A DNA stretch of 64,000 bases, taken from NCBI GenBank assembly GCA_045612485.1, contig JAZKZE010000115.1, positions 3,524-67,523 of the forward strand, given 5' to 3'. Origin of the DNA: Victivallales bacterium (GTDB lineage Bacteria > Verrucomicrobiota > Lentisphaeria > Victivallales > UBA1829). The notes under the pieces were generated by a model. It did not search any database. It saw only the letters and a list, made by a program, of their open reading frames with translations, and had not been told where the DNA came from. The translations under genes were made by a program, and so were the position numbers. Shown here one piece after another: positions 6,334-59,126 of this stretch (its first letter is position 1; each line of letters opens with the position of its first letter).

Positions 6334-6358
6334 GCGTAAGTTTTATTTTACGGAAAAA

Positions 6359-6403
6359 GGGGCTGTTGCAAAACCTCAAAAAAGGTGAGCAACAGCCTTT
6401 TTT
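6359..6403 (+). terminator. rho-independent terminator
   Basis: GGCTGTTGC (6361-6369) pairs with GCAACAGCC (6389-6397), followed by T6. Confidence 0.8.
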
Positions 6404-6495: not shown

Positions 6496-6808
6496 CTCAA
6501 ACATTGTGTTTGAGGGAACTGGATTTTTGATCGTTTATAAAAAAAGTTGGAATTGTTTTTATCGTGACGATAAAAGCAATTCCGTCAAAAGTTTTTGGAA
6601 GATGGGGAGCGGGGAAGAGAACCTTTTTTCAAAAAGGTGTCTTCCCCGCAAAACATTTTTGCAACAGCCCCTTTTTTTTCTGCTTTGCACGGCTTGATAA
6701 AAATGGGTAGCAGAAAATGTGATTTTCTGCCCTTCGGCTCCCTTGGAGCCTTGTTAAGTCCCGCGCTGCGTACCATTCAAAAAGGGCGTATTGCAAAAAA
6801 AAATGCAA
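6496..6808. other. non-coding tract containing seven consecutive distinct hairpins
   Basis: Hairpins read directly from the sequence: 6496-6514 (8 bp), 6549-6582 (16 bp), 6610-6648, 6648-6662, 6710-6730 (9 bp), 6736-6750, 6791-6808. There is no convincing ORF. Confidence 0.6.
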
Positions 6809-6831: not shown

Positions 6832-7263
6832 TTAATATTCCTTCATGGCGTCAGCCGAAAAAATTGCTTTTCTATCTCCGGGGATCTCTGAGGCAAAAGA
6901 GATGCCACTTCCGGAACATTTGAGCGGGGTATCGGCAAGGATGAATCTACTCTGGGCAAGATCATTGAGGAAGGTGATACATTCTTTGTAGGATTCCCTG
7001 ATCTTTTCCGGAACATTATTACCGGGACCGCGTTTGTATAATTCATATTCTGCAATGCGTAAGGTCCATTCTGTAATGAGGGGATTATCCGTAAGGGGGA
7101 CATTGTAGCGGATGCAGGCATAATTATTTACAAAACTTTCTGCTCTGGCAATGATCTCGTCAAGGAGTTTTATAAGGTTTTCGCCTGTTTTTCCGGAAAG
7201 ATTTTCCAGAACAGGACGTGTAAGACGGTTTTCCAGATCTTGCTTCTGAATATAATTTCCCAT
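6832..7263 (-). CDS. Mu gp36-like protein (DUF1320 family)
   Basis: 143 aa. The pattern Y..QDL......L..L...(30 aa)...ARAESFVNNYACIRYNVPL....L.EWTLRIAEYELYKR is typical of the DUF1320/Mu gp36 family. Confidence 0.8.
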   Translation of the reverse strand: MGNYIQKQDLENRLTRPVLENLSGKTGENLIKLLDEIIARAESFVNNYACIRYNVPLTDNPLITEWTLRIAEYELYKRGPGNNVPEKIRESYKECITFLNDLAQSRFILADTPLKCSGSGISFASEIPGDRKAIFSADAMKEY

Positions 7264-7342
7264 GGTTTCCTTTCTTTAGTATGCAATATAAGAAAAATCT
7301 CTCCGGACCGGGGTGGAATGTCCGGAGAGGAAAGGTGAAGAC

Positions 7343-8260
7343 TTACTCTTTGCTTCCGCCCTGATAGATCAGATGGGGGAAGGCGGTGAAGGAGGCGCCT
7401 CTGGCATTGGTGCCGTAAATGTATTCTTTATTCTTGAATACATTTTCATCCCCTTCTGAATCCAGACGGATGAGAGAAGGCATTTTCCGCTGCTGGATAA
7501 AGACAGGTTTGAGAACTCCGTCTGTTGCGGCAAGATACCAGTTATCCTCGTATTCGCCGGAAAGTTCGGGAAGTACCAGAAGTTCCGCGCTTCCGTTCCA
7601 GGGATTATCCGTTGCGGCAACCCCGGAAACATTTCCCTCATTGACTGTATGAAGAGTAAGACGGTCTTTCAGAATACTGAAAGCTGTTTCTTCATTTTTG
7701 GGACCGACAATAAGAAGATTAGGGATGATCCCCAGGTTTCTGCCGGAATGACCTTTATAATTCATCATGGTCATACGGGCGGAGGCGTAGGCAGAGGCGG
7801 AAAGAGGGGCGGAGGACTGATTGCAGATCACATTTTCCCCGTAAAGACGGCTGGAAGAGAAAAATTTCAGATCGTCCGCCCAGACCTGGTTGCTTACCAG
7901 AGCTTCCACGGCAAGATCGTGCCATAATCTTGCCGCATGGCAGCCCATCTGTGCAATGAGGGTGGAATAGATCCCGTACTGATCGTCTTCAATGTCATTT
8001 CCGGGAACGGCAATGGTTTCTTCAAAATCCCGGTTGAGGACTTCCAGTTTCCTGGTGGCGAGATCTTTGATGACTCTTTCGCCGATCCATTCTCTCATGC
8101 CGCCGAACTGTTCCAGGAAGGGGTAAACGTTGGAGGCACTTCCGGAGGGGATCACAGAACAGAATTTCTGCCAGGAAGCCGGGACTTTTTCCAGCCCCTG
8201 AAGAAAACTTGTGTTGAAGCCCTGAAAAAGTACATCCATGGTTTTACGGTTGATATCCAT
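7343..8260 (-). CDS. Mu-like major head subunit (gpT family)
   Basis: 305 aa. The N-terminus MDINRKTMDVLFQGFNTSFLQG...YPFLEQFGGMREWIGERV is characteristic of gpT-type capsid proteins. Confidence 0.9.
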   Translation of the reverse strand: MDINRKTMDVLFQGFNTSFLQGLEKVPASWQKFCSVIPSGSASNVYPFLEQFGGMREWIGERVIKDLATRKLEVLNRDFEETIAVPGNDIEDDQYGIYSTLIAQMGCHAARLWHDLAVEALVSNQVWADDLKFFSSSRLYGENVICNQSSAPLSASAYASARMTMMNYKGHSGRNLGIIPNLLIVGPKNEETAFSILKDRLTLHTVNEGNVSGVAATDNPWNGSAELLVLPELSGEYEDNWYLAATDGVLKPVFIQQRKMPSLIRLDSEGDENVFKNKEYIYGTNARGASFTAFPHLIYQGGSKE

Positions 8261-8314
8261 ATTTTATCCTTTCTTTTTTATGATTCTGTATGGAGAGTAA
8301 GTGTGTGTCTGATT

Positions 8315-8740
8315 TTATGCTCCGGCAAGGACAAGATTGCCCACTTCCACAATGAGAAGTCCGTCGGAATCGATCTCCCGGAGAACGCCTGCGGGGATTC
8401 TGTTTGTGCCGCCGTTTTTGCCAACGGTGTGGTCATCCACCACATAAACGATGTGATTGATGTCCTGTTCGCCAAGTTTTTCTCCTTCCGTACCGTTATC
8501 GTACTTGAACATTCCGGATTTGATAATGATCCTGCCGTCTGCGGCAAATCCTTCGGCTCTGCCGAGAACGATAAGTCCGGGGGAGTCGGAGGCATTCTGT
8601 GCCATTCCGGTAAGGGGATCTACGGCGGCGATAGCTCCGGTGAAAATTGTGCTGCCTGTTTTGATTTTTCTGATCCTGCGGAACTTCTGGGAGTGACAGA
8701 GAATCTCCGGGGTGTTTCTGTTTGCAGTAAGTGCTGCCAT
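8315..8740 (-). CDS. small phage head-associated protein (position of a decoration/DUF2190-like protein)
   Basis: Start taken at the internal ATG 8740 (MAALTANRN...), preceded by a GGAAAGG-like SD. It lies between the gpI and gpT genes. Function is inferred from position only. Confidence 0.55.
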   Translation of the reverse strand: MAALTANRNTPEILCHSQKFRRIRKIKTGSTIFTGAIAAVDPLTGMAQNASDSPGLIVLGRAEGFAADGRIIIKSGMFKYDNGTEGEKLGEQDINHIVYVVDDHTVGKNGGTNRIPAGVLREIDSDGLLIVEVGNLVLAGA

Positions 8741-8846
8741 GATTTTTTCCTTTCCAGCAGAGTGATGATCTGCTTTTTTCTTGTTGAAAGACAGAATATT
8801 TCTGTCTTTATGTTTTTGGTCAGAGAATTTTTTTGAGAATTGCTTT

Positions 8847-9737
8847 TTAATTTTTATTTTCTGTAAGTCCCAGCATGGAAAAAATCTCTTTTTCCAATGC
8901 GGAGGGAGAAGGCTTTTCTTCCGGTAAACGGGCCTGATCGGTATAGAGATTATCCGGAACGATCCGGGGGGCAGTTTGACACCAGAGATCAAAAAGGGCC
9001 GGATTTTCCTTCAGAAGAGTGTTTGCCCAGCAACGCATATTTTCAGTAAGGATCCCCCGGGAGAATGCTATTTGCAGTTTTTCATTTCTTACGATCTCTT
9101 CCGCCCGGGAAAGCAGTTTATTTGCATCCGCAAAATTTTTTATTCTGTGTGTTCTGAAAAATGTTTCTTTTTCCCTGTCGCCGGAAGTATCGGTACTGCC
9201 GGTCAAATCACTTGCCGCAAGCGGCGGAATATTATGCAGTGCCGGATGATTGGTCAATGCCACAGAATGGATCCCTGTGACATTTCCGGATCCGTTGGAA
9301 AAATACAATACCGGGGAATAATAGCGGTATTTTCCGCTGAGAATGAGTTCTTCCGCTTCTTTGGTCCAGTATTTGACAAGCCCTGCAAGACCTTCTTCAC
9401 TTTTTCGCAGCTCTTTGATCCAGCCCGCCGCCGGTGCCTTTGTTCCGCTGATGCTCTGATGTTCAAAATCAATAACAAGATCTTTGCCCCGGTTATGGAA
9501 TTCGTCTATGATGGTATCGGCATCTTCCGGAGAAAAAAAGAATTCTCCCTCATCGCCATCTTTGGTATAAGAATTTTTTCCATACTTCAAGAGAAGGATT
9601 TCTTCCGGAAGGGTACGGTTATTGGTATCGCTTACCGGGGAAGGAGGGGTGTTTTCTTTCCTTTTCTGTGAGATCGTTTCCGTAAAAGAGACGGGAATGA
9701 CAGTGGCATGGAAATATGCCATGGAATCCATTTGCAT
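8847..9737 (-). CDS. Mu-like prophage protein I (head protease/scaffold)
   Basis: Start at ATG 9737 (MQMDSMAYF...) after AAGGAAAG. Contains VIDFEHQS and AGWIKEL...YYSPV motifs typical of the Mu gpI family. Confidence 0.85.
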   Translation of the reverse strand: MQMDSMAYFHATVIPVSFTETISQKRKENTPPSPVSDTNNRTLPEEILLLKYGKNSYTKDGDEGEFFFSPEDADTIIDEFHNRGKDLVIDFEHQSISGTKAPAAGWIKELRKSEEGLAGLVKYWTKEAEELILSGKYRYYSPVLYFSNGSGNVTGIHSVALTNHPALHNIPPLAASDLTGSTDTSGDREKETFFRTHRIKNFADANKLLSRAEEIVRNEKLQIAFSRGILTENMRCWANTLLKENPALFDLWCQTAPRIVPDNLYTDQARLPEEKPSPSALEKEIFSMLGLTENKN

Positions 9738-9753
9738 TTTACTTTCCTTTTTT

Positions 9754-11094
9754 TTATGGGTTGTTTTTGTCAGTTGCCTGTTTTTCAAGGCGGATATTGA
9801 AGGCTTTTTCGATCCATTCGGGAGAGATGGCAAAATTGCTTTCAGAAAGCAGTTTGATGATCTGTGCTTTTTCCAGAAGATTTTCCGGAGAGGAAAAATC
9901 CAGGATGAAACGGTATTCACCGTCAGTACCGTAACAGTATTTTTCCAGAGGACGGAGCAATTGATTGTTGATTGTTTCCATCAGGGCGCGGCAATCTGCT
10001 TCCAGAATATCATGTCTTACATTTTCCTGGATCTGACCTTTGCTGAAGCCTCCGGAAACGGAACTGGAGGCAGTCTGTCCCAGAATGAGAAGGGTGTAAA
10101 GTTTATCTATGTAGTCCAGAAAAGTCTGGTACTCGCCGGAAGCGCTTATACCGGGAGAGAGAGTCTGGATCTGGGATTCTCCTGTAACGACTCCGGAACC
10201 GTCGGAAGAGATCCTGTTCAAGGCTGCAAGAATATTTTTTCTTGTATCCTCATTTTCAAAGTCCTGCTGATTGATCTTTGCAATGAGGAAGGGAACACCG
10301 AATTTTTCCAGAAATCTTGCCCTGTCTCTTAATGCATAATGTTTGAAAAAGTACAGCCACAGAAGGGGACGGAGCAAGCCGCCGCTGCCGCAGGGACCGG
10401 ACTTGAGCTTGTGGTAATGGAGAATAAACTGATGGGGATGATACTGGTAAAGGGGCCGGATCTGACCGCTATATGTACGCAATGCCGGATTGCCTGCGGC
10501 ATCAAAAAGAAAATTTTCCTGACAGATGCTTTTAAATCCTTTTATGGAAGAACCTCCTTCCTCCCATTCAATGACGGCTCCGGCACAGCCGAAAGCAAGG
10601 CTTTCCATAAGATGACGGAGCAAAAAATTTATGTTGGCTTTTTCCAGAATGGAGGAAAGCATACTGATTTTTTCCGGATCACGTCCGGCGATCTGCCAGT
10701 CACAGGCACATACAGCAAGTATTCTTGTTTGCAGATGAGCCGCAATGACCGGTTCATTTTCCAGTATGGCTCTGTAAAGGAAGGCCTGATCATAAAGAAA
10801 ACCGCTGTCCGCCTCTGTTGTTGCGGATCTGATGCGTGATGCGGAGATCTTTCCTGAAGGAGCAGGAACGGTAGAACAGAGTAATTCCTGAAAGTCTCTG
10901 CTTGAGTTACCGGACGGGATGGAACTGAGTCTGCTTTTGTGATTTTTTTCTGCCGGGGACGGACTGTATCTGATACAGTTTTCCGGCAAAGAAATTTTAC
11001 TGTCAGAAAGAGTTTTGGTTTTACGGAAAGAAAATGGCTGAAAGAAGGACGCTGTCATTTTCCCGGCAAAAAGGTGAAAGTGATTTTTTTTCAT
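9754..11094 (-). CDS. phage portal protein, Mu gp29-like (DUF935)
   Basis: Start at ATG 11094, 7 nt after AGGAG. Conserved blocks: IAAHLQTR, GCAGAVIEWEE, LLRPLLWLYFFKHYALRDRARFLEKFGVPF. Confidence 0.88.
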   Translation of the reverse strand: MKKNHFHLFAGKMTASFFQPFSFRKTKTLSDSKISLPENCIRYSPSPAEKNHKSRLSSIPSGNSSRDFQELLCSTVPAPSGKISASRIRSATTEADSGFLYDQAFLYRAILENEPVIAAHLQTRILAVCACDWQIAGRDPEKISMLSSILEKANINFLLRHLMESLAFGCAGAVIEWEEGGSSIKGFKSICQENFLFDAAGNPALRTYSGQIRPLYQYHPHQFILHYHKLKSGPCGSGGLLRPLLWLYFFKHYALRDRARFLEKFGVPFLIAKINQQDFENEDTRKNILAALNRISSDGSGVVTGESQIQTLSPGISASGEYQTFLDYIDKLYTLLILGQTASSSVSGGFSKGQIQENVRHDILEADCRALMETINNQLLRPLEKYCYGTDGEYRFILDFSSPENLLEKAQIIKLLSESNFAISPEWIEKAFNIRLEKQATDKNNP

Positions 11095-11267
11095 ATTCAG
11101 GGATCTCCTTTGGTTTGATCTCTGGTAAGGAGTATGCGTCAAACAAAAGGAGAAAAAAAGTAAAATTGGAGAATAAAAATTTACTCTCCGGAAAATGGTT
11201 CTGCTGATGGAAAAAACATGACAGGAAGGTTTTTTTATGAAAAAAAAGGGGGTTTTTTGCACTAAAA

Positions 11268-18371: not shown

Positions 18372-19550
18372 ATGAAAACATGGAAACATCCCCTTGTACT
18401 TACTGCACTTTTTTGTGCCATGCTGCTTTCAGCTGCCCCGAAAATGCAGGAAAAGCTGATTTTTCCGGAAAAGATCTATGCCGTACCGGGTATTGAAAGC
18501 AATATTTATTATGAAAATATTTTCCATACCCACAATCCTGCCAATTACTCTTTTGAATTTCTGTGTAAAAAAGGGAATAATGGAGAGAAAAGATGGTACT
18601 ATACGCCCAGGAAAGGGGATGAAGGTACTTATGACGTTACTTTGCGTGTCTGGGATGATGATGGCGTGGTAGCGGAAGCAAAAAGCCAATTGATCGTCAC
18701 ACCTGCTGATGCGGGTAAGGATAAAGAATTTTCCCTTATGATCGTAGGGTGCAGCGGCATTGCCATGTATAATGCCTACCCCACCCATGTGTATAATCTT
18801 TTCCGGCAACCCGGAAATCCCAAATTAACGATGGTCGGGGAAACCGGACCGGGGTGGCCCGATAAGATCGGCGAAATCCGGCACGAGGGGTACGGCGGAT
18901 GGAGTTTTCTTACTTTTACCACCAGCGGCCGTATCCGTGGGAAATCACCTAATATGCGGGAAAATCCCTTCTGGAATTTCCAGACGAAAAGTCTGGATTT
19001 TGCGGCATATTTCAAAAAGAATAATGGAGGAAAAGCTCCGGATATCATTACAGTCACTCTTGGCGGAAATGATACATTCAGCGGAAAGGATGATACCATT
19101 GAAAAAATTATTTCCGGTGTGAAACAGAGAGCCGTTACTTTTTTCTCAGCTCTGCGGAAAGCTGCCCCCAATGCAAGGATCGCCATTGTCATGCCCTATT
19201 ATATTGCCGCCTCCCAGGATGCTTTCGGGTACAATTACGGTACTGCCGGGAACAGATGGCAGTTTAAGAAGAATTACAGGGCTTATATGCTGATGATGCT
19301 TGCTCTTGCAAAGGAAAGAAAGGATCTGAAACTGGATGTTGTTCTTACCAGCGGTGCAACGGATAATGAAAATAACGTTACGATCCATAAAATTGCCCCC
19401 AATGCCCGTAATAAGGCAGTGAAGATCAAACGTATCGGCAATGCTCTCCACCCCCTTCCTGCCGGGTATCAGCAGAGTGCGGATGTTTTCTATTGCTGGG
19501 TGAAATATATATATCATCAGCAGAAGGCAGAAAAACTCCCCGGAAAATAA
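18372..19550 (+). CDS. secreted SGNH/GDSL-like hydrolase-fold protein (paralog 1)
   Basis: Signal peptide. Block III LGGNDTF and block V-like GNALHPLPAGY are present, but block I reads IVGCSG instead of GDS. Confidence 0.8.
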   Translation: MKTWKHPLVLTALFCAMLLSAAPKMQEKLIFPEKIYAVPGIESNIYYENIFHTHNPANYSFEFLCKKGNNGEKRWYYTPRKGDEGTYDVTLRVWDDDGVVAEAKSQLIVTPADAGKDKEFSLMIVGCSGIAMYNAYPTHVYNLFRQPGNPKLTMVGETGPGWPDKIGEIRHEGYGGWSFLTFTTSGRIRGKSPNMRENPFWNFQTKSLDFAAYFKKNNGGKAPDIITVTLGGNDTFSGKDDTIEKIISGVKQRAVTFFSALRKAAPNARIAIVMPYYIAASQDAFGYNYGTAGNRWQFKKNYRAYMLMMLALAKERKDLKLDVVLTSGATDNENNVTIHKIAPNARNKAVKIKRIGNALHPLPAGYQQSADVFYCWVKYIYHQQKAEKLPGK

Positions 19551-19606: not shown

Positions 19607-20788
19607 ATGAAAACATTGAAACTCACCATGACACTTGCTGCACTTTTCTGTGCGGTGCTGCTTTTTGCAGCACCGAAAATGCAGGATAAACTGATTTTGC
19701 CGGAAAAGATCTACGCAGTACCGGGCATTGAAACCAATATTTACTATGCCAACATTTTCCGTACCATCAATCCTGCCAACTATTCCTTTGAATTCCTGTG
19801 CAAAAAGGGCAATAACGATGCCAAGAGATGGCACTTTACTCCGAAAAAAGGTGAAGAAGGTACTTATGATGTTACCTTGCGTGTCTGGGATGATGATGGT
19901 GTGGTTGCAGAAGCCAAAAGCCAGTTGATCGTTACCCCTGCGGATGCAGGAAAAGATAAAAATCTTTCCATTATGATCGTGGGGTCTTCCTGTATTTCCA
20001 TGTTCCACGCATACCCCACTCATATTTACAATCTCTTTAAAACCCCCGGTAATCCCAAACTTACCATGATCGGTGAAAACGGCCCCGGCTGGCCCGATAA
20101 AATCGGTGAGATCCGTCATGAAGGTTACGGAGGATGGAGTTATCAGACCTTTATCACCAAGGGACGTGTCCGTGGTAAAAGTGCCAATATGAGAGAAAGT
20201 CCCTTCTGGAATTTCAAGACAAAAAGTCTGGATTTTGCTGAATATTTCAAGAAAAATACCAATGGCAAAGCTCCTGATCTTGTGACGGTTTCCCTTGGCG
20301 GAAATGATATGTTCCGCGCTCAGGATGCCACCATGAAAGAACACGTTGCCGGTGTGAGAAAGAATATGATCACATTCTTTACCGCCCTGCGTAAAGCAGC
20401 TCCCGATGCGAAAGTTGCCATCGTTCTTATTGATTATGCTGCCACCTCCCAGGATGCCTTCGGTTACAACTACGGCAGCACCCAGACCAGATGGCAGTTC
20501 AAGAAAAATTATGCCGCCTTTATCAAAATGGTACAGGCTCTGGTGAAAGAAAAACCTGAACTCAAACTGGAACTGGTGCTTCTTAATGGTGCCGTGGATA
20601 ATGAAAACAATGGTCACATCTACAGAATGAATGCCAATGCCAGAAATAAAGCAACGAAAGTTCTTTTCCAGGCAAATGCCCTGCATCCCAAGCCCCATGG
20701 TTATCAGCAGGGTGCAGATGCCTTCTACTGCTGGATGAAGTATATGCTTCACAGAGATGAACAGGCAGCAAAAGCTGTAAAGAAATGA
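19607..20788 (+). CDS. secreted SGNH/GDSL-like hydrolase-fold protein (paralog 2)
   Basis: Very similar to the previous gene, with long identical stretches such as TYDVTLRVWDDDGVVAEAKSQLIVTPADAGKDK. Contains LGGNDMF, ANALHPKPHGY, and IVGSSC at block I. Confidence 0.8.
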   Translation: MKTLKLTMTLAALFCAVLLFAAPKMQDKLILPEKIYAVPGIETNIYYANIFRTINPANYSFEFLCKKGNNDAKRWHFTPKKGEEGTYDVTLRVWDDDGVVAEAKSQLIVTPADAGKDKNLSIMIVGSSCISMFHAYPTHIYNLFKTPGNPKLTMIGENGPGWPDKIGEIRHEGYGGWSYQTFITKGRVRGKSANMRESPFWNFKTKSLDFAEYFKKNTNGKAPDLVTVSLGGNDMFRAQDATMKEHVAGVRKNMITFFTALRKAAPDAKVAIVLIDYAATSQDAFGYNYGSTQTRWQFKKNYAAFIKMVQALVKEKPELKLELVLLNGAVDNENNGHIYRMNANARNKATKVLFQANALHPKPHGYQQGADAFYCWMKYMLHRDEQAAKAVKK

Positions 20789-20827
20789 GAAATACACAGT
20801 TTCCGGAAATCTTCATGGTTTCCGGAA

Positions 20828-20963
20828 ACGTCGCATAATATACATTATGTGACAGAGAAAGGCTTTTTTTCCGTTGCAAAATAAAAAAAAAGCAGATATG
20901 TGAAGTATAAAACAGATTTAATAGAAATTCAAAGGAGGTAACATAATGTATATTATGCGACGT
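20828..20963. promoter_or_regulatory. perfect 23-bp inverted repeat flanking a 90-bp spacer that holds the SD; the right arm covers the start codons
   Basis: The left arm 20828-20850 (ACGTCGCATAATATACATTATGT) is the exact reverse complement of 20941-20963. GGAGG sits at 20934-20938, and the candidate ATGs at 20946 and 20955 lie inside the right arm. Confidence 0.9.
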
Positions 20964-21728
20964 CAAAAATTTACACTTATTGAATTGTTGGTTGTCATAG
21001 CTATTATTGCCATCCTTGCCGGGATGCTTCTTCCGGCATTGACCAAAGCAAGATCCAAAGCATTTTCCACCGCCTGTAAAAATCAGTTGAAGCAGTGCGG
21101 GCTTTATATGCATATGTATGCGAATGATTTTAAAGGCTGGGTTCCGGCTAATGCCCGTGGCTACGACTACGAAACCGGATATCTGGACACTCTTGCCCCC
21201 TATATCGGGTGGACTCCGGATACTATTAAGAAATCTTCTATGACAGGGAATAATGAAAGGGCAATCAGTATTCTCTCCAAATTCAAAACTTTTTCCTGTC
21301 CCACCATGCCGCTGCCCAAATATCTCATTTCCTATGCTGAGCTGCAGCATTATACTTACGGGGTGTTTTCCTGTCCCCGTACAGCAAGTTATTCTTACTA
21401 CGAACTGAAATGGCCTGAGGTAAACAGTAAAGCACATTGGAAGATCGAACTTATGAAGATCAATAATACACCTCCCCATATGGCAGATACTATTTCCCAT
21501 GTTAAATCTTATGAAAGAGAGGGCGCGACGGTGGCAGGCATATTCCAGGCGCCTTCTTTTCAGGTCAATAGCCAGGGCGATGTCGGGTATATCGGGATGC
21601 GCCATGACGGGGAAGCCAATACCCTGCGTATCGATATGGCTGTAAAAAGTTACAAAGGAAGACAGATTTTTACGGCTCCGCGTGTTTTGCGTTACAGATC
21701 CGGTAACGGTACGATTATTGATAAATGA
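20946..21728 (+). CDS. prepilin-type N-terminal cleavage/methylation domain protein (DUF1559-like pseudopilin-like protein)
   Basis: N-terminus [35 protein letters not shown], with a C-terminal degenerate H-x9-DG-like block ([17 protein letters not shown]). Confidence 0.85.
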
Positions 21729-21775: not shown

Positions 21776-24700
21776 ATGAAAAAAAGTTTGTATAGTTACT
21801 TTGCTCTTGCAGCAGCCTTTTTTGCGGGCTTTTCTGCTGTCGCGGCAGAAAAGGGCAATCTTGTGGCAGATCCCGCTTCTGCTGTCAAAAATACATGGAA
21901 AAAATATCCTGTTGCAGGTAAAGATTTCTGGATGCTCCTTGACCCCAGATGGCTGGAACTCAAGGGCGTTTCCCATGAAGAATTTGTACAGAAGTCCGGA
22001 ACAGGATTCGTCCAACAGACTGTCTCCGGAGAAAATGTGACAAATCTGCGTGTTCTTACCATCGGGGAAATCACCTCCTATGATGCAAGAAACAGAAGAA
22101 GAAAAGCAACCATAGAGGTCATTCCCGAAGAAAAGGATATGCTGGTGACCGATCCCCAGTACCTCAATGACGGAAGTGTCAGAAATTACTGTGTTTTTTC
22201 CGGTAATGTTCTGGATATGACAAGACGCTATGCCATTCATAAAAACACACTGAAATTCAAAAGTGATTTCGCCATTGCACGCCTTGCCATCAATCATGGT
22301 GTCGGCAAAGACAACCGTATCAGCAAACTTTTGTGCAACGGTAAAGAAGTACAGATCCCTGCTGATAAAAATACTTTTGATGTGAAGATCACTCCGGCAG
22401 CAAAGGAATTTGAACTTACTGTCTATTCCTCCCCCCTGAAATATCAGGCAAAGGAATTGAATGTGCCTTATGAAGAAAGATTGAAAAAGGCTCCCTTCTG
22501 GCTGACCAATATGTTCCGTGCCAATTACGGTAACATTTTCGGAACCGATGTCTGCAATTTCGATCAGGAAAGTTTTGCTTCTGTCAGAAAAAAATACGGG
22601 GAAAACTTTATCGGCTACTGGCTGCCGGAATGGGATCACAACTATATCCTTGCTGTATCCCGCCCCAATCTTCCCTATTACAAAACCATTCAGAACTTTA
22701 TCAAAGTACCCTGCAATAAAGAGGATTTTGTTAAAGGCGTCCTGAAATTCTGCTGGGATTCCCATAAACCGCTTTTCGGCAAAGATCTTCTGGGTATGAG
22801 CGGTCAGGTGCTTTTCATGCATCACGCCTGTGACTGGGGAAGCACCGTTTCCGGTCTGGAAATCACCCAGGAAAAAACCGAACTTGCCGGAAGGATCTCT
22901 TTTATGTTTACCAGAGGTGCTTCCAGACAGTTTGATAAACCCATGTATATTTATCAGGCATACTATGGCGGTTCCCAGTCTCCCAGCAGTACTTTGCGCG
23001 GTTACAACAGAAGAATAGACTGGGGAGTGGCTCCCTCCCTCACCATGCGTAACTTCATGGCAAGTTACTATATGGGTAACAACTATCTTGACTTTGAAGC
23101 ACAGCCCTACGGGATGGTTCTTCAGGAAAAAAATGGAAATCATACTCTTACCGGCAACGGTAAAGTCATGAAAGAATTTTATGAGTGGACTGCCTCCGAC
23201 AAAGGAAAACGCGGGGAAAGTTATACCCCCATCCTTCTCCTTGCCGACAGAAAACACGGCTATGATATGTGGTACAGAATTGCTCCCAGAGGCTGGGACA
23301 ATTTCTATAACATCTATCCTCTGACTGATGCCAATTTCTTTATGGAATATGTGATGCAGGTCATCAGCCCCCGCTATGATTACAACAAGTTTGACAACCC
23401 CAAATACAGCCCAAATCTGCACAACTCCACAGTAGGGGATATTTTTGACCTCTATCTTGCCAACCCCCTTGTAAACGGGGAAGTGCGTCTGGATCAGTTG
23501 AAAAAATATCCGGTGGTAGCCCTTGTTGATAACATCACCTATACAGAAAAACTTGCCAATACCCTGAAACAGTATGTTGCAGAGGGGGGAACTCTTCTTC
23601 TTACCACCGGGCAGACCGCTCCCTTTGAAGAAGATAAAGATTTCCTCGGCGTGACTATCGGAAAAGATACAAAGAAGGAAGACGGACTTTTTGTCAATCC
23701 TCTCACCCTTCTTCCCGGTACGGAAACTGTTATGGCAACAAGCAGAAAGACTCCCCTTGCCACAAAGAAAAAATACGGCAATGGTCATGTGATCCTGCTT
23801 GCCTCCCCCTACATGAAGAAAACTGGTGACTTGACAAAAGTGCCCCAGCAGCTTGTAAAACTTTTTGAAAAGATCCAGAGCGAACTTCTGCCGGTAAAAG
23901 TGGAAGGCGATTGCCAGTACCTTTTCAATATCATGCCTGACGGTACATGGAAAGTTATCCTTATCAATAACAGGGGTATTGTGAAACTTCCCACAGAATC
24001 CTTTGAAAAGCATTTCAAGGAATATACCGCCAAAGTCACCCTTACCGTTCCTGCCGGAGTCACCATAAAGGAATTGCGTAAAAATACCGTTCCTGTTGTG
24101 AAAAAGGGTAAAGAATTCGATCAATATACTTTCAATATCGCTCCTGCTGATATTTATGTAGTGGATATGAAAGGGATCAAATTCGGTAAGACCGTCAAAA
24201 AAGGTCCTGCAAAATTCAACAGAGTGAAGAATTATAAATTCCAGCCCTATACCCCCAAAAAGGTCAATGACGGTTATAAACCCCGTCCTGCCGCAACTCT
24301 CGCCGCCATGGGAAAAAATATGGTTGCCGCTCCTGCTGTTGTTGCCTCATGGAAAGGGGAAGGGATGAAAGAGGTCACCGGTAAAGGGTATGAATTGAAA
24401 TTCCACAATGTGGAAGTAAAAGACGGCATTGCCAGATACAATACCAAACGTTCCTGGGCTACTTTGAACGTTCAGCTCAAACATTCTCTGCCGGCAGTAA
24501 GCTATGAGCTTGTTGTCAAACCTGCTCCCATTGAACAATGGAAGAACGTTTACGGCAGACATGTGAGAGGCGGAGTTCTTTATCCCCACCGCAACCTTAT
24601 GCTGGAATATTATCACGGCAGATGGACACTTCTTCTCTTTGAAAGGCTCATCTATGACCGTGTGATGGGCCCGAAAGCCGCTGCGGAGTGGACACACCTC

Positions 24701-24958
24701 TGTGTAACATTGGAAAAAAACATTGCCAGACTGTTTGTCAATGGCAAAGAGGTGAAACGTGCCGCCGGCCCGATCAAGTCCATAAATGAATTCAGGCCAA
24801 AAACTCCTGTAAGCAAGCTCGGACTCAATCTTGGTTCTCTTGCCCATACCTGGCCCATTCCCTATTCTTTCCAGGGGGAAATCAAAGAGTTTACCATTCA
24901 TGGTAAAGCACTTTCTCCGGAAGAGGTCGCACAGAGAGCTGCGACGGTAAAGAAATAA
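21776..24958 (+). CDS. large secreted protein with a C-terminal LamG/concanavalin-like domain
   Basis: 1060 aa with a signal peptide (AAAFFAGFSAVAAE). The C-terminal ~200 aa end in the LamG-type signature FQGEIKEFTIHGKALSPEEV. The N-terminal ~800 aa are unassigned. Confidence 0.8.
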   Translation: MKKSLYSYFALAAAFFAGFSAVAAEKGNLVADPASAVKNTWKKYPVAGKDFWMLLDPRWLELKGVSHEEFVQKSGTGFVQQTVSGENVTNLRVLTIGEITSYDARNRRRKATIEVIPEEKDMLVTDPQYLNDGSVRNYCVFSGNVLDMTRRYAIHKNTLKFKSDFAIARLAINHGVGKDNRISKLLCNGKEVQIPADKNTFDVKITPAAKEFELTVYSSPLKYQAKELNVPYEERLKKAPFWLTNMFRANYGNIFGTDVCNFDQESFASVRKKYGENFIGYWLPEWDHNYILAVSRPNLPYYKTIQNFIKVPCNKEDFVKGVLKFCWDSHKPLFGKDLLGMSGQVLFMHHACDWGSTVSGLEITQEKTELAGRISFMFTRGASRQFDKPMYIYQAYYGGSQSPSSTLRGYNRRIDWGVAPSLTMRNFMASYYMGNNYLDFEAQPYGMVLQEKNGNHTLTGNGKVMKEFYEWTASDKGKRGESYTPILLLADRKHGYDMWYRIAPRGWDNFYNIYPLTDANFFMEYVMQVISPRYDYNKFDNPKYSPNLHNSTVGDIFDLYLANPLVNGEVRLDQLKKYPVVALVDNITYTEKLANTLKQYVAEGGTLLLTTGQTAPFEEDKDFLGVTIGKDTKKEDGLFVNPLTLLPGTETVMATSRKTPLATKKKYGNGHVILLASPYMKKTGDLTKVPQQLVKLFEKIQSELLPVKVEGDCQYLFNIMPDGTWKVILINNRGIVKLPTESFEKHFKEYTAKVTLTVPAGVTIKELRKNTVPVVKKGKEFDQYTFNIAPADIYVVDMKGIKFGKTVKKGPAKFNRVKNYKFQPYTPKKVNDGYKPRPAATLAAMGKNMVAAPAVVASWKGEGMKEVTGKGYELKFHNVEVKDGIARYNTKRSWATLNVQLKHSLPAVSYELVVKPAPIEQWKNVYGRHVRGGVLYPHRNLMLEYYHGRWTLLLFERLIYDRVMGPKAAAEWTHLCVTLEKNIARLFVNGKEVKRAAGPIKSINEFRPKTPVSKLGLNLGSLAHTWPIPYSFQGEIKEFTIHGKALSPEEVAQRAATVKK

Positions 24959-37194: not shown

Positions 37195-38079
37195 ATGAAA
37201 AGGTTCAGAAATCATGTATTGATAACCATGCCGTCTTTTCTCTGGCTGGTCATCTTCTATGCTTTACCGGTCTTCATCGTTTTTCTTCTTGCCTTCAAAC
37301 CTGTTGACCCTTACGGGGGGATCGGGGACGGCTGGACGCTGACTACATTGCGGAATCTTTCCAACCCCAGTTATCCTGCTATTATCTGGAGGACTGTCTG
37401 GCTGGGAGTCGTTTCCACAGCGGTAAGTATCATTATTGCCATTCCCATAGCCTATCATCTGGCGAAAATGAGTTCAAAACTGCGTAATATCGTCCTTATG
37501 CTTATTATTGTACCTTTCTGGACAAACTTTCTCATCCGTATTTTTGCGTGGAAGGTTTTTCTCAATCCGGAGGGCTTTTTCCGCAGAAGTCTGGTGTATA
37601 TCGGGCTTATTCCGGAAGAAACCATGCTTCTTTACAACCAGTGGGCGGTTCTTGCAGTAATGATCTATACCTATCTGCCCTATGCCATCCTGCCCATCTA
37701 TGCTGCGGCGGAAAAGTTTGATTTTGCTTTGCTGGATGCGGCAAAAGATCTGGGGGCAGGTTCTTTCCAGGCTTTCCGGAAAGTGTTTCTCCCGTCTATT
37801 TCCAAGAGTATCGGGGTGGCGGTGATGGTGGTATTGATCCCTGCACTGGGGGCATATCTTATTCCGGATCTGGTGGGGGGACCCACAAGTGAAATGATTG
37901 GCGACAAGATCGCTCAGAGTGTATTTACAGAACGGAATCTGCCTCATGCAAGTGCATTGTCTGCCATTCTGATGATTGCAGTATTCCTGCCGCTTCTTCT
38001 GATGATGTTTTTCAGAAGAGTATGTAATAACATCAATCCGGAAGCGGAGAAAACAGCTCGTATCGGGGTGAAAAAATGA
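37195..38079 (+). CDS. potB: polyamine ABC transporter permease
   Basis: Six-TM permease with the EAA-type loop LDAAKDLGAGSFQAFRKVFLP. Confidence 0.88.
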   Translation: MKRFRNHVLITMPSFLWLVIFYALPVFIVFLLAFKPVDPYGGIGDGWTLTTLRNLSNPSYPAIIWRTVWLGVVSTAVSIIIAIPIAYHLAKMSSKLRNIVLMLIIVPFWTNFLIRIFAWKVFLNPEGFFRRSLVYIGLIPEETMLLYNQWAVLAVMIYTYLPYAILPIYAAAEKFDFALLDAAKDLGAGSFQAFRKVFLPSISKSIGVAVMVVLIPALGAYLIPDLVGGPTSEMIGDKIAQSVFTERNLPHASALSAILMIAVFLPLLLMMFFRRVCNNINPEAEKTARIGVKK

Positions 38080-43263: not shown

Positions 43264-44353
43264 AAGTGAACTGGATACCCCTTCTCTTATTCTTGATTGG
43301 GAACTTTTTGAAAGAAATCTTATTCTCATGCGGGATTTTGCCGCCTCCCGCAATAAAAAACTGCGGCCCCACGCTAAAACACATAAATGCCCGCAGATCG
43401 CCAAGATCCAGCTGGAAACCGGCAACTGTGCCGGGATCTGTGCTGCCAAACTATCTGAAGCGGAAGCTCTTGCCAATGCCGGGATCAATGATATTCTTAT
43501 TACTTCCCCTGTGTCCGCTCCCTGGAAGATAAAGAAACTGGGCTTGCTGAATAAAAAAATCTCTTCCTTGAAAGTTGTTGCCGACAGCCGGGAACAGCTT
43601 GAACTTCTGGCAAAGGAGGGTTCCGCAGAAAATCCCCTGCACATCCTTATTGATGTGGATCCGGAAATGGGAAGAACGGGGGTTTCTTATGAAGAAGCAC
43701 CGGCATTGGGACGTTTTGCCGCCTCTTTCCCCACACTTGTCCTTGACGGTGTGCAGTGTTATGCAGGCCACCTTCAGCATATCGTTTCTTATGAAGAGCG
43801 GTCAAAAGAATGTACCCGCCTTATGAAAAAAGGTGCGGAAGTATTCCATATCCTGAAAAAAGAGTTTCCTTCCTGCGTGATCTATACAGGCGGCGGAACC
43901 GGTACTTCCCCTGCGGATGTATTGATTGACGAGCTTACCGATATCCAGGTGGGATCGTACTGTATGATGGATTCAGAATATCTTGCTGTGGAACATGGGG
44001 GGCCTTTCTATTTTCCGGCATTAAAGATTTTGACAAGTGTGATTTCCGCCCATAAAAGCGGGGAAGCCACCCTTGATGCGGGAACCAAGTCCATTTATGT
44101 GACACCGGGCGCACCGCCGCAAGTGATCCGGGAGGGAAAAATCTGTAATAAATTTACCTATTCCTGGGATTACGGAGATGAACACGGTCACTTGTTTTTT
44201 CCGGAAAACATCAAATTATCTGCCGGGGATGTTCTGGAAATGACCGTTTCCCATTGTGACCCCACTATCAACCTTTTTGATAAACTTTATATTGTAAAAG
44301 GTAATGAAGTTGTGGATTGCTTTGATATTGCTTTAAGAGGCTGCAACCGGTAA
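43256..44353 (+). CDS. DSD1-family PLP enzyme (D-threonine aldolase/D-serine dehydratase-like, alanine racemase N-fold)
   Basis: PLP-lysine block LRPHAKTHKCPQIA and a C-terminal VSHCDPTINL. Overlaps the GT4 stop by 8 nt. Confidence 0.85.
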   Translation: MYKSELDTPSLILDWELFERNLILMRDFAASRNKKLRPHAKTHKCPQIAKIQLETGNCAGICAAKLSEAEALANAGINDILITSPVSAPWKIKKLGLLNKKISSLKVVADSREQLELLAKEGSAENPLHILIDVDPEMGRTGVSYEEAPALGRFAASFPTLVLDGVQCYAGHLQHIVSYEERSKECTRLMKKGAEVFHILKKEFPSCVIYTGGGTGTSPADVLIDELTDIQVGSYCMMDSEYLAVEHGGPFYFPALKILTSVISAHKSGEATLDAGTKSIYVTPGAPPQVIREGKICNKFTYSWDYGDEHGHLFFPENIKLSAGDVLEMTVSHCDPTINLFDKLYIVKGNEVVDCFDIALRGCNR

Positions 44354-50537: not shown

Positions 50538-51608
50538 TTAATAAAAGACCCATTCCAGATATTCCTGGGTTTCTTCCTTTGCTCCGGAGATCTCCAATGC
50601 TCCGAAAGAAGCGGTCAGACGTTTGGAAGGACGGCGGCTTCCCGGGGCAGGTTCAATAACTACCGTATAATAATCACTCCCCCGCCAGGACATTTTCTGC
50701 TGCAATTTTGCCGGAAGTCCCACATCCAGTTCATCGGACATTTTGATGCGTTTTTTCCGTAATTTTTCCCTTGCCTCCAGTACAGAAGAAAGCTCATCAT
50801 CCTCCAGATCCGCCAGAAGCCGTATCATTTCAGGGGAGGCGGAAAAGAAACTTGGCGTACCATTGAGAACAACTGTCCCCTCCGGCGGGATCAATCTTAC
50901 ACTGGTAAGTCTTCCTGATTTATCCGGCGGGATAAGGGAGGTGAAATCTTTGATGTAATAGAGTTCCTCCCTGTACTGCATAGCTCCGTTACGGGGCAGG
51001 GGATTCATATTTTCCGATTCATAATCCTCTTTTTCCATTCCTTCCGCAGAATCTGTCCCTACTGCCGCCGAGGTTGTGGGGGTATCGTTGCTGTCGGTAT
51101 AATCGGCAATTCTGGCAATAATATCATTGACCATATCCACAATATCCTGTTCCGTATCCGGATCAGACGCAAAATTCCGCAGGGAATTCCTGTACTGGGA
51201 TGAGGAAAGGTCCCAACCGGAAATTGCATCATAGACCATTACATTTACCTTGTCCCCGTAATAATCCACTTCGTGGATCACTCCATCCTGAAGGAATCTT
51301 TCATAATCCATTTCCTCATAATCCACTTCCCCCAGAACTTCCTGCGTCCGGTTCTGATCCCTGTCCGCGGCGATAAGGAAACTTACCCGGTTCATGACCC
51401 CTTCATTGATATAAAAAGACTTCTGGATACTTACATGTGCCGCCATATCCATTGTACTTACAAGCGTCATTCCGGCAACAGCCGCCGCTAGCATCCCCCC
51501 GAGAAAAACAAGACAAAGCACCGCAACAAGGGCAGAACCTTTTTCCGCGGAGTATTTTCTCCTGTTCCGTAGAAGTTTCCGGATATTTTTTCTGTAAAAA
51601 AGCATCAT
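50538..51608 (-). CDS. gspK: T2SS minor pseudopilin GspK-like
   Basis: EKGSALVAVLCLVFLGGMLAAAV N-terminal segment, 356 aa, last gene of the pseudopilin block. Confidence 0.65.
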   Translation of the reverse strand: MMLFYRKNIRKLLRNRRKYSAEKGSALVAVLCLVFLGGMLAAAVAGMTLVSTMDMAAHVSIQKSFYINEGVMNRVSFLIAADRDQNRTQEVLGEVDYEEMDYERFLQDGVIHEVDYYGDKVNVMVYDAISGWDLSSSQYRNSLRNFASDPDTEQDIVDMVNDIIARIADYTDSNDTPTTSAAVGTDSAEGMEKEDYESENMNPLPRNGAMQYREELYYIKDFTSLIPPDKSGRLTSVRLIPPEGTVVLNGTPSFFSASPEMIRLLADLEDDELSSVLEAREKLRKKRIKMSDELDVGLPAKLQQKMSWRGSDYYTVVIEPAPGSRRPSKRLTASFGALEISGAKEETQEYLEWVFY

Positions 51609-51626
51609 GCAAAAACTTTTCCTGTG

Positions 51627-52301
51627 TTATAATGATGGCATCCTGCGATACCCCAGTGTACTGTATTTGCTTGTTCCCGCCGCACGGCGCAACCACTGTT
51701 CTTTTCTGCCGTTTTTCCATGTGACTGTCATCTGTACTGCCAGCGGGATCGCCTCATGTTCTTCTTCATCCCACTCTTCCAGGAATTCCATACCTTCATC
51801 CTGTTCCTCATTTTTTTCTGCATAAAGGAAACTTACGCTTTCCACATTGTTGCATAGGACTTCTTTTGTCGTCTGGAAAGTGCCTTCCTCCTCCCAGGGG
51901 AGAAAGGGGTAGGGCGTATATTCTGCAATGAGTTCCTCATTTTCCACATATAATTTAATAAAGATGATCCCTCCCTTATCTCCTGCATGACTTCTCCGCA
52001 GAGCGGTAAAGAGCATGGAATCACTTTTCCCCTCAAAAACAAATTTCTGTTTGTTATTGTCTTCTTCGTCCTTCCATTTGAAAGGGATCATATTGCGGAA
52101 ATAGTTATCCGCAATACGGTCGATCGCCTGTGCAGACTTCAGGAACGCTGTTACTCTTCCTGTTCTTGCCCAGGTATTGTAAAAACTCATGGAGGCAGTC
52201 CCTATGATGAGGGCAACAAAGATCATTACCGCCATGGCGGCGATCATTTCCACAAGCGTGAAAAATCTTTTTTCTGCAAACGTTTTTTTATCAGTTTTCA
52301 T
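51627..52301 (-). CDS. gspJ: T2SS minor pseudopilin (GspJ-like)
   Basis: Prepilin motif RFFTLVEMIAAMAVMIFVALI. Assigned by size and position. Confidence 0.6.
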   Translation of the reverse strand: MKTDKKTFAEKRFFTLVEMIAAMAVMIFVALIIGTASMSFYNTWARTGRVTAFLKSAQAIDRIADNYFRNMIPFKWKDEEDNNKQKFVFEGKSDSMLFTALRRSHAGDKGGIIFIKLYVENEELIAEYTPYPFLPWEEEGTFQTTKEVLCNNVESVSFLYAEKNEEQDEGMEFLEEWDEEEHEAIPLAVQMTVTWKNGRKEQWLRRAAGTSKYSTLGYRRMPSL

Positions 52302-52710
52302 CGAAAGAACTTTCTGAATCGTAACTCAAACGGTCGATCCTCAAGGTATCCACAACTTCATTTTCCGGCAGTTTGCGTAATTGCAGAGTCAGACATTTCA
52401 ACGGGACCTGCCCCATAAGGTCACTCAACTCTTCCGGAAGATCCTCCACATCCTCTATGCTTACATCCACCTGATGGTCCCTGTAGGGAAAAATAAATTC
52501 CGGAATATCCGGCGGATCATCCCCCTGCATGAGATAATATTCCGCCGCCTGGGAAAGAATGTGCATCCTCTCCCATTTTTCATAACTTTTACTCAATCTT
52601 TTCTGGGACTGGGTCATCAGTTCCAGGATCCCTGTAAGACTGATGGCAAGGATGGCAAGGGCGATCACTACCTCTATCAGAGTAAAAATATTTTTTTTGA
52701 AAATTTTCAT
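52291..52710 (-). CDS. gspI: T2SS minor pseudopilin (GspI-like)
   Basis: Prepilin motif NIFTLIEVVIALAILAISL, 139 aa. Confidence 0.6.
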   Translation of the reverse strand: MKIFKKNIFTLIEVVIALAILAISLTGILELMTQSQKRLSKSYEKWERMHILSQAAEYYLMQGDDPPDIPEFIFPYRDHQVDVSIEDVEDLPEELSDLMGQVPLKCLTLQLRKLPENEVVDTLRIDRLSYDSESSFDEN

Positions 52711-53327
52711 TCCTCCTCCTTTACCGTGATCAGCAGTCCTGTAAGGGGGGATATATCGTAAGTAAGAGAAAGGGCTTTACATTCCAGTTTGAATCTGCGG
52801 ATGCCGGATGCCCCTCCGTCGGGAAAGAACCGGAAAACTTCATACATATTATCTTCCGGAGCGTCCTCCGCTGCAAAATTTTCTTCATTGATCTGTGTAT
52901 TTTCCGGCAGCTTCCATTTTATGACAGAAGGCGGATCCGGCATAGGTTCATCTTCATCGGTAAGCTCCTGCCTTTTTCTTTCCTCTGCGGCAAGCTCTTC
53001 CTCCGTAAGACTTCTTTTTGTGATGAATTCTTTTGTTACAGGGGAAAAACATACAATGATATCCTCACCGTGTTCCTGTGCCTGGAATCTTGCCCTTGCA
53101 CAGAATGTTTCAAAGCCCGTGGACGCTCTTTCCAGCTGTCTTGCCGCAGAATCCCCTCTGAAGGCGGCAACAGCGAACCCCAGGGATATCACGATAATGG
53201 CAAGAACGACCACCAGTTCAATAAGTGTAAACTTTTTCCGTACAGAACATGCGGCAGCTCTTTTCCCGGGAAAGGAAAACATACTGCGGGAAGGAGAAAA
53301 TTTTTTTCCCTTATCCATAGTATCCAT
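52707..53327 (-). CDS. gspH: T2SS minor pseudopilin (GspH-like)
   Basis: Prepilin motif KKFTLIELVVVLAIIVISL. Lies immediately downstream of gspG. Confidence 0.6.
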   Translation of the reverse strand: MDTMDKGKKFSPSRSMFSFPGKRAAACSVRKKFTLIELVVVLAIIVISLGFAVAAFRGDSAARQLERASTGFETFCARARFQAQEHGEDIIVCFSPVTKEFITKRSLTEEELAAEERKRQELTDEDEPMPDPPSVIKWKLPENTQINEENFAAEDAPEDNMYEVFRFFPDGGASGIRRFKLECKALSLTYDISPLTGLLITVKEEE

Positions 53328-53376
53328 CCTTTCCCCTGTTTTTCCTGTTCAGAAAAAACAGAAATACCGTATTGCA

Positions 53377-55046: not shown

Positions 55047-55090
55047 CTTATTTCCTTTCCCGGACAGAATCTGTGCAATTCATTTTCCCG

Positions 55091-59085: not shown

Positions 59086-59126
59086 GTTTCGTCCTTCGTA
59101 TATTATTATTTTCTGTTTTTATTCTG

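Follow-up and report, generated by a model that had tools for sequence, protein, structure and literature searches.

Both invertible promoters and Xer recombination are familiar, but they have been handled as separate subjects. In the invertons of gut bacteria (Mpi and Tsr of Bacteroides; RecV of Clostridioides difficile), short inverted repeats flank a promoter segment upstream of surface-protein, secreted-protein and glycan operons. Many loci with related repeats occur per genome, and one trans-acting recombinase can serve many of them. The dif sequence, in turn, is the textbook single-copy site with one job, namely chromosome dimer resolution. An Xer-family enzyme of Mycoplasma, Xer1, reportedly acts as an invertase at the vpma locus. 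Here, we describe a 136-bp cassette from a 64,000-nucleotide stretch of a Victivallales genome (contig JAZKZE010000115.1; hereafter, the window), which is located immediately upstream of genes for a pseudopilin-like protein and a large LamG-domain protein. The cassette is bounded by two inverted dif-like sites and is probably an Xer-type inversion switch for this operon, belonging to a multi-locus family served by a trans-acting tyrosine recombinase.

The closest match among the described systems is the 'D' module of Acinetobacter, which is defined by two inverse 28-bp XerC/XerD-type sites (pdif) with internal XerD arms (PMC13141974). Where two pdif sites face in opposite directions and have identical 6-bp spacers, the intervening segment is inverted, as revealed by PCR and read evidence (PMC9947245; PMC13141974); the host provides the enzyme in trans. 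Excision of these modules is disputed (PMC11705084). The window element displays the same arrangement of inverse sites, internal XerD-like arms, and identical 6-bp spacers. However, pdif modules reside on Rep_3 plasmids, where C and D modules of 0.5 to several kb alternate and carry resistance or toxin–antitoxin genes, while the window element is chromosomal, lies amid housekeeping and carbohydrate-enzyme-like genes, and contains no open reading frame (ORF) but only an 80-bp cargo with a probable promoter and the Shine-Dalgarno (SD) sequence. Its central region, TATACA, is that of the presumed chromosomal dif of this phylum, and the start codon of the adjoining gene is built into one of the sites. 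Since the gene start lies within a site, inversion of this element would be regulatory.

With classical gut invertons, the element shares the logic, that is, inverted repeats on either side of a short stretch of intergenic DNA immediately ahead of a gene, but not the sites. The repeats of gut invertons are system-specific and unrelated to dif, the segments are typically about 150–350 bp long, and the start codon lies outside the repeat. In Ureaplasma parvum, XerC inverts the mba locus at short inverted repeats and switches surface-protein genes; these sites are distinct from the putative dif, which is bound by the paralogue CodV (PMC3599477). The window sites, in contrast, are themselves dif-like, including the central region, and enclose an 80-bp promoter/SD cassette, whereas the unit switched in Ureaplasma includes coding segments. 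Chromosomal dif and integrative mobile elements exploiting Xer (IMEX), such as the CTX and TLC phages, share a 28-bp site of 11-6-11 structure with a conserved TTATGTTAA XerD arm, and IMEX are DNAs without a recombinase of their own that exploit the XerC/XerD of the host (PMC3025954). The dif site is single-copy and acts between sister chromosomes, and integration of IMEX leaves directly repeated sites. Window-type sites, by comparison, come in inverted pairs with a spacing of 108 bp and occupy no fewer than 10 loci per genome; they are thus dif-like rather than the single-copy dif locus itself. A literature search of incomplete coverage revealed no paper that joins dif-like sites with invertible elements or deals with promoter invertons in Lentisphaerae.

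The inverted repeat had been noticed in the original prediction, and all of its coordinates were correct on recheck: positions 20941–20963 are the exact reverse complement of 20828–20850 (ACGTCGCATAATATACATTATGT). With one mismatch allowed, the repeat extends to 26 nt (20828–20853 and 20938–20963), leaving 84 nt between the arms. The window contains only these two copies of the arm at up to three mismatches, and shuffled sequences gave 0.00 matches; none is expected by chance, and a chance origin is excluded. The GGAGG sequence, the two candidate ATG codons (20946 and 20955), the A9 run in the spacer, and two copies of GTTTCCGGAAA (20799–20809 and 20818–20828) are also present as had been described. 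Two properties escaped that description, namely the dif-type nature of the arms and their membership in a multi-copy family.

Both sites in the window, as well as all paired sites identified elsewhere, parse into 11-6-11 elements with inner half-arms CATAA/TTATG and partial dyad symmetry. Each site in the window reads ACGTCGCATAA-TATACA-TTATGT.... They lie in opposite orientation and turn their XerD-like arms inward (Table 1). The proximal site holds both candidate ATG codons and codes for M-Y-I-M-R-R: the first ATG straddles the border between the XerD-like arm and the central region, and the second opens the XerC-like arm, which consequently encodes the M-R-R start of the prepilin leader. 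The SD sequence overlaps the outer end of the proximal XerD-like arm.

Table 1. Features of the cassette and of the adjoining operon (window coordinates).
Feature	Position	Strand	Sequence, evidence or remark
Hairpin of two GTTTCCGGAAA(C) palindromes	20799..20829	+	13-bp stem; repeat and fold
Distal 28-bp Xer/dif-type site	20828..20855	+	sequence parse and match to single dif-like sites
Distal site, XerC-like arm	20828-20838		ACGTCGCATAA
Distal site, central region	20839-20844		TATACA
Distal site, XerD-like arm	20845-20855		TTATGTGACAG
Candidate invertible cargo, 80 bp	20856..20935	+	47% A on the sense strand; includes the start of the SD
Shine-Dalgarno sequence	20934..20938	+	GGAGG; 7 nt ahead of ATG 20946
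Proximal 28-bp Xer/dif-type site	20936..20963	-	minus strand reads ACGTCGCATAA-TATACA-TTATGTTACCT
Proximal site, XerD-like arm	20936-20946		TTATGTTACCT; plus strand AGGTAACATAA
Proximal site, central region	20947-20952		TGTATA on the plus strand
Proximal site, XerC-like arm	20953-20963		plus strand TTATGCGACGT
Gene 1, prepilin-type (N_methyl)/DUF1559 pseudopilin-like protein, 260 aa	20946..21728	+	PF07596, PF07963
Gene 2, 1060-aa protein with C-terminal LamG/concanavalin-like domain	21776..24958	+	domain match

The survey of one genome per species for the exact 23-mer yielded 28 loci, which fell into two groups, single sites and paired inverted sites. As a single site, the exact 23-mer was found in 13 genome assemblies, and the identical 28-mer ACGTCGCATAA-TATACA-TTATGTTAAGT in nine assemblies of Lentisphaerae/Victivallales. 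Near-identical single sites were detected in Lentisphaerae WC36, two assemblies labelled only 'uncultured bacterium', a Desulfobulbus, and a Margulisiibacteriota, the last two being among the 13 assemblies with the exact 23-mer. The first 23 nt of the distal site in the window are the same as in the single dif-like sites of other Lentisphaerae. The Lentisphaerae consensus agrees with dif of Escherichia coli (GGTGCGCATAA-TGTATA-TTATGTTAAAT) and of Bacillus subtilis at 21 of 28 positions each; for the XerD arm, the agreement is 10/11 and 9/11, respectively (reference sequences from PMC3025954). Given their sequence, single copy per assembly, and conservation across phyla, the single sites are presumably chromosomal dif. 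The one in the complete genome of WC36 is located at about 1.48 of 3.66 Mb. GC skew near the single sites was noisy over flanks of 4 kb or less.

Some additional features of the single sites were observed. In at least eight Lentisphaerae/Victivallales assemblies (L002, L005, L007, L015, L019, L020, L024, and L028), the site lies about 100 nt past a common upstream sequence, which consists of a coding 3' end (...NNEH) followed by TTGACAAGTTATTAACA. Where ORFs were read (L015 and L028), the upstream gene encodes a protein of about 705 aa with a GreA-like C-terminus. Synteny of this kind around a dif site is unusual. In L005, L019, L020, and L024, a partial dif-like site (e.g., TTAACATAATGTATAATATC) occurs 66–74 bp downstream of the single site in direct orientation and resembles a pseudo-dif left by a very small Xer-integrated element.

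The paired sites form a module that recurs before 15 or more different prepilin-type genes, distributed over RGIG9525, RGIG5327, and several ENA assemblies. RGIG9525 and RGIG5327 are metagenome-assembled genomes (MAGs) from yak caecum and sheep colon, respectively, and both are thus of ruminant-gut origin. The core CGCATAA-TATACA-TTATGT is invariant in nearly all sites. It is also kept in the second arm of each locus and at loci reached through proteins, neither of which was selected by the search pattern. The central region is identical within 14 of the 15 pairs and reads TATACA everywhere except in one degenerate pair, L026a. All module-linked pilin-like proteins open with M(YIM) followed by a further 13-letter motif (not shown).

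The geometry of the module is also conserved. The centre-to-centre spacing of the sites is 107–109 bp, with a single case of 113 bp, and the cargo between the 28-bp sites measures 79–81 bp in 14 of 15 distinct modules. This narrow length distribution despite divergent cargo sequences suggests a constraint on loop geometry. The polarity of the cargo is conserved as well: a distal GTGAAG is followed by a T-run, a (G)CTTGAAA box, an A-rich stretch (39–65% A) and, finally, CAAAGGAG(G/A)TAAC. The SD sequence is conserved as AAAGGAG(G/A)TAAC in 12 of 15 modules. In the window, a -35-like TTGCAA is present in the cargo at 20874–20879, and the cargo probably contains a promoter.

Pfam matches (PF07596, PF07963, and the LamG domain) bear out the earlier assignment of the controlled genes to a DUF1559 pseudopilin-like protein and a 1060-aa LamG protein. 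The product of gene 1 has 3840 homologues at E ≤ 1e-10. Exact-protein look-ups with the window's GDSL, pilin (both starts), and LamG proteins returned no contig. Gene 2 starts 47 nt behind gene 1 and is presumably co-transcribed with it; its predicted N-terminus reads as a signal peptide. Most of the module-linked pilin-like genes are followed, at a distance of 13–65 nt, by a gene for a large protein with a signal-peptide-like N-terminus, in which DUF4838, CBM9, GH2_N, beta-helix or LamG domains were identified. Because such large proteins closely follow most of the pilin-like genes, the controlled unit is typically a pseudopilin combined with a carbohydrate-enzyme-like protein.

No tyrosine or serine recombinase was detected in the window by Pfam scans of about 45 ORFs, and XerD and Hin probes used in tblastn matched nothing in the window or in 51 related loci, even at E ≤ 1. 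The earlier statement that the window lacks a recombinase gene was thus upheld. Recognition of the arms as Xer/dif-type sites indicates the likely class of enzyme and accounts for the lack of an invertase gene near the module, which fits a trans-acting enzyme. The identity of the sites points to XerC/XerD or a paralogue.

If the cassette operates as proposed, an Xer-type tyrosine recombinase from another part of the genome (XerC/XerD of the housekeeping system or a paralogue) would bind both sites and synapse them over a loop of about 108 bp. Strand exchange within the identical central regions would then flip the cargo, presumably in a reversible manner. The state present in the window would be ON. 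After inversion, the gene would retain its ATG but lose the SD sequence and the promoter and would be OFF, with the SD sequence facing a 10-codon dead-end ORF and the upstream hairpin. The OFF junctions predicted for the window locus are ...ACATTATGTTACCTCCTTTGAATTTC... and ...GCCTTTCTCTGTCACATAATGTATATT..., given also as TTTCCGGAAACGTCGCATAATATACATTATGTTACCTCCTTTGAATTTCTAT and GGAAAAAAAGCCTTTCTCTGTCACATAATGTATATTATGCGACGTCAAAAATTTACAC.

Two loci bear directly on inversion. At L012, the polarity of the cargo is reversed (OFF) relative to an intact pilin gene of 256 aa: its GTGATG end adjoins the pilin gene, and its SD end is directed at a dead-end ORF of 25 codons. To be assembled in this orientation with k-mers longer than the 28-bp arm, the locus would need reads in that orientation. 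At L026, contig JAGBXB010000083 runs only 76 nt past the inverton, and this terminal stretch repeats, as its reverse complement, the pilin 5' sequence of the opposite side. Because the same pilin 5' sequence joins both ends of the cargo, this contig carries an ON and an OFF junction, which is what mixed orientations in a co-assembly would give. Alternatively, L026 may contain a true divergent gene pair, which would likewise make the cassette a toggle. Together, the OFF locus and the OFF junction suggest, at the level of assembled sequence, that inversion has happened.

Loci L029, L030, and L041 were considered as a possible OFF state of the window locus, as prompted by a gene call of 271 aa, and rejected: the polarity of their spacers is ON (scores of 44–75 in forward vs 5–21 in reversed orientation), and the 271-aa call starts from an in-frame ATG inside the cargo with an AAGGAAG of its own. 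As a separate observation, two independent assemblies of the P0083 locus begin at an identical base within the distal arm (L044:1 and L045:1; TACATTATGT...), while three other assemblies of this locus read through that point. The shared start may stem from branching of the assembly graph at this inverton.

Comparison of the window (20700–21060) with its orthologous locus in RGIG9525 (L029:2925–3280) revealed a localized replacement. Protein identity amounts to 92% for GDSL, 96% for the pilin, and 95% for LamG, while no alignment is possible between the GDSL stop codon and roughly codon 20 of the pilin gene, save for the two arm cores. The spacer of L029 is nearer to those of paralogous loci in its own genome than to the spacer of the window. 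Since this patch was replaced between close relatives with matching flanks, it has evidently, as judged from these alignments, been exchanged by recombination among paralogous 5' regions. Within the pilin gene, the first 20 or so codons are rich in synonymous differences between the window and L029, and the sequences are near-identical afterwards.

Other orthologous loci differ in their content of sites. The RGIG9525 orthologue of the P0083 locus (L003:6376) keeps the proximal site and the SD sequence but lacks the distal arm of L042:2388–2523, and the upstream regions of L003 and L042 are unrelated; this single-armed variant is presumably locked ON. More distant operon orthologues (P0009 loci) contain no inverton, only an intergenic gap of 52 nt. 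More distant orthologues of the LamG operon (P0014 loci L035–L040) carry no dif-like sites, and all six independent assemblies of these loci stop inside the 5' part of the pilin-like gene; L035 terminates in a nearly perfect palindrome, GAGAGGGGGCGGAAAGCTTTTTTGCAAAAAAGTTTCCGCCCCCTCTC, which is unlike the module arms.

A second type of dif-flanked cassette was identified in MAG SIG91. This genome contains three pairs of full dif-like sites located 131–132 bp apart (L014:4615–4778, L018:771–934, and L023:887–1051). Both XerD-like arms of these pairs read TTATGTTAAGT, the spacer holds a TATAAT box within TTGAGTATAAT, and there is no start codon in the arm. Two of the three pairs, those in L018 and L023, are positioned upstream of large genes (750–1275 aa). 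This architecture supports the general notion that, in this phylum, pairs of inverted dif-like sites enclose expression signals.

Several observations weigh against a functioning Xer-type inversion switch. Ten independent assemblies of three loci (five of the P0083 locus, four of the P0045 locus, and one more, L051, of the window's locus) are all ON, no locus was seen in both orientations among independent assemblies, and OFF was encountered in only 1 of about 17 distinct loci. Two exact-pattern scans of metagenome contigs, for the left flank with the arm and for the SD sequence with the proximal arm, gave no match. The 80 bp between the sites are at or below the loop limit of the tyrosine recombinase Cre, which works in vitro at 82 bp and fails at 80 bp; FLP works at 74 bp in vivo (PMC4929723). 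Phased A-tracts that might aid bending were sought in the cargo, with no peak at 10–11 bp. The cargo promoter is only a weak match to consensus (TTGCAA/(G)CTTGAAA). With at least 20 dif-like sites on one chromosome, unrestricted use by the housekeeping enzyme would carry a risk of deletions and large inversions. Finally, the assignment of the single sites to chromosomal dif draws on sequence and copy number only.

The uniform ON state of the 10 assemblies and a loop at the physical limit of tyrosine recombinases are also what a static cassette would display, with the dif-like sites being scars of an Xer-mobilized promoter module (a miniature 'dif module') that was brought to pilin genes, or moved between them, by Xer recombination or gene conversion and is now fixed as ON, with no reversible switching. 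The same explanation agrees with the swapping of the inverton region as a patch among close relatives, with the L029 spacer closer to own-genome paralogues, with the single proximal site of L003, and with the degenerate sites of L026a. At about 15 loci, however, the non-coding distal site retains its invariant core and identical central region amid diverging surroundings, which argues for continuing selection on a compatible site pair. The tightly fixed length of the cargo is hard to explain for a scar, and the OFF locus L012 and the OFF junction of L026 indicate past inversion. We regard such a static or fossil cassette as the main rival explanation, though not a likely one. A further explanation retains the site pair but dispenses with recombination: Xer proteins acting non-catalytically, or another dimeric regulator, would loop out the promoter segment of about 108 bp, as known for looping between the two gal operators in E. 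coli. An identical site pair flanking the promoter/SD region at a fixed 107–109 bp and the absence of a local recombinase gene are compatible with such a repression loop. Yet the asymmetric central regions are kept identical and inverted, as required for strand exchange and not for operators, the sites resemble a recombination site rather than any operator familiar to us, and the reversed cargo of L012 together with the L026 junction speaks for physical inversion. Looping alone is therefore an unlikely function of this pair.

Of the two models put forward in the original prediction, DNA inversion is the better supported, given the recurrence of the family, the OFF state of L012, and the dual junction of L026, and stands in part. 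The other model, in which the arms form a 23-bp duplex in transcripts started upstream that hides the SD sequence and start codons or is cut by RNase III, found no support as a selected function. The fold of 20790–20980 is indeed very stable (-59.4 kcal/mol vs -27.1 kcal/mol in shuffles; z = -8.4), and the arms overlap the SD-proximal region and both ATG codons. When 15 distinct modules are aligned, 87% of the cells are paired between the arms, but owing to invariance: 14 of 28 pairs never vary, the remainder change one-sidedly or break, and changes on both sides occur in two cells only. No compensatory changes were revealed, the covariation score being 0.064 vs 0.061 in shuffles, a value reached by 154 of 500 shuffles. 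Positions 24–28 are systematically unlike between the distal and proximal arms, and an Rfam search with the element gave no match. Since it is the arm sequence that is conserved rather than the arm pairing, the RNA hairpin is disfavoured, and selection appears to act on the DNA sequence of a protein-binding site, one conserved as a recombination site across phyla. Moreover, if the promoter lies in the cargo, the distal arm is not co-transcribed with the gene. The OFF orientation of L012 is left unexplained by an RNA model. An RNA switch is thus very improbable, although a duplex could form in read-through transcripts as a by-product. The small size (136 bp), the terminal inverted repeats, and the many copies per genome might also recall a miniature inverted-repeat transposable element with 23–26-bp termini inserted upstream of the gene. 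However, 20828–20963 is not bordered by a target-site duplication (left flank ...CGGAA, right flank CAAAA...). What would be the terminal repeat encodes the conserved MRR with which every pilin-like gene begins, and its sequence recurs unchanged in dif-type sites of unrelated phyla. Such an element, or a repeat arisen by chance, which the shuffles speak against, is hardly a credible source of the cassette.

Besides the inversion switch itself, we put forward a broader and more tentative proposal, namely that XerC/XerD acting at dif-identical sites, possibly with FtsK, were co-opted as a genome-wide phase-variation engine in ruminant-gut Lentisphaeria, with 10 or more loci per chromosome. If so, each locus would control a pseudopilin-like protein and most of them also a large secreted carbohydrate-enzyme-like protein, and switching could be coupled to cell division. 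The cell would need some means of preventing recombination among its dif copies, or between them and the genuine dif; a minimal loop length of about 108 bp favouring the local partner is one possible safeguard.

What would be unexpected to specialists is the occurrence of dif-type sites in many inverted chromosomal pairs that are apparently used for gene control. If the inversion switch proves real, a housekeeping recombination system, or a close paralogue, is reusable for gene regulation, and Lentisphaerae, a gut phylum that has been little studied, would gain their first candidate system of phase variation. Such a switch would account for why inverton searches keyed to a nearby invertase gene miss such switches, raise the testable question of how a cell tolerates at least 20 dif-like sites, and connect the 'dif modules' of Acinetobacter plasmids with a chromosomal, regulatory counterpart. 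A 136-bp cassette would also be a very small natural switch for engineering. The nature of the controlled genes suggests on/off variation of a glycan-degrading surface machinery in the rumen and hindgut.

The remaining features of the window concern the surroundings of the cassette. Upstream of the pilin gene are two GDSL-like genes, and the hairpin formed by the two GTTTCCGGAAA palindromes sits right behind the stop codon of the nearer one, where it may serve as a terminator or insulator. The pair of palindromes is kept in the near-identical assembly L051 and is absent from the orthologous loci L029, L030, and L041; for this reason, it is not part of the conserved module. The related palindrome TTTCCGGAAA (up to one mismatch to GTTTCCGGAAA) occurs 26 times in the window vs 2.5 expected, for example at 18–29, 7189–7200, 18461–18472, 20799–20829, 37772–37783, and 44197–44208. 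At several paralogous loci, a CCGG/CGGAA motif is also present just outside the distal arm, no more than about 10 nt away. A second perfect inverted repeat of 20 nt (6354–6373 and 6657–6676, 283 nt apart) was examined and rejected as a switch; each copy lies in a local GC-rich hairpin followed by a T-run, so that the repeat consists of terminator-like hairpin halves.

The neighbourhood is chromosomal in character and includes genes for PriA, asparagine synthase, RecD2, and a type II secretion operon, among others. Mu-like phage head genes (Gp36, major head protein gpT, protease I, and portal) are located amid housekeeping genes on the minus strand at 6832–11262 and may represent a prophage remnant or a domesticated particle; neither a transposase nor another recombinase was detected in the window. 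The type II secretion operon, also on the minus strand (50538–60092), encodes the secretin GspD, the ATPase GspE, GspF, the major pseudopilin GspG, and GspJ-like and GspC-like proteins. It could provide the machinery that handles the DUF1559 pseudopilin-like protein family.

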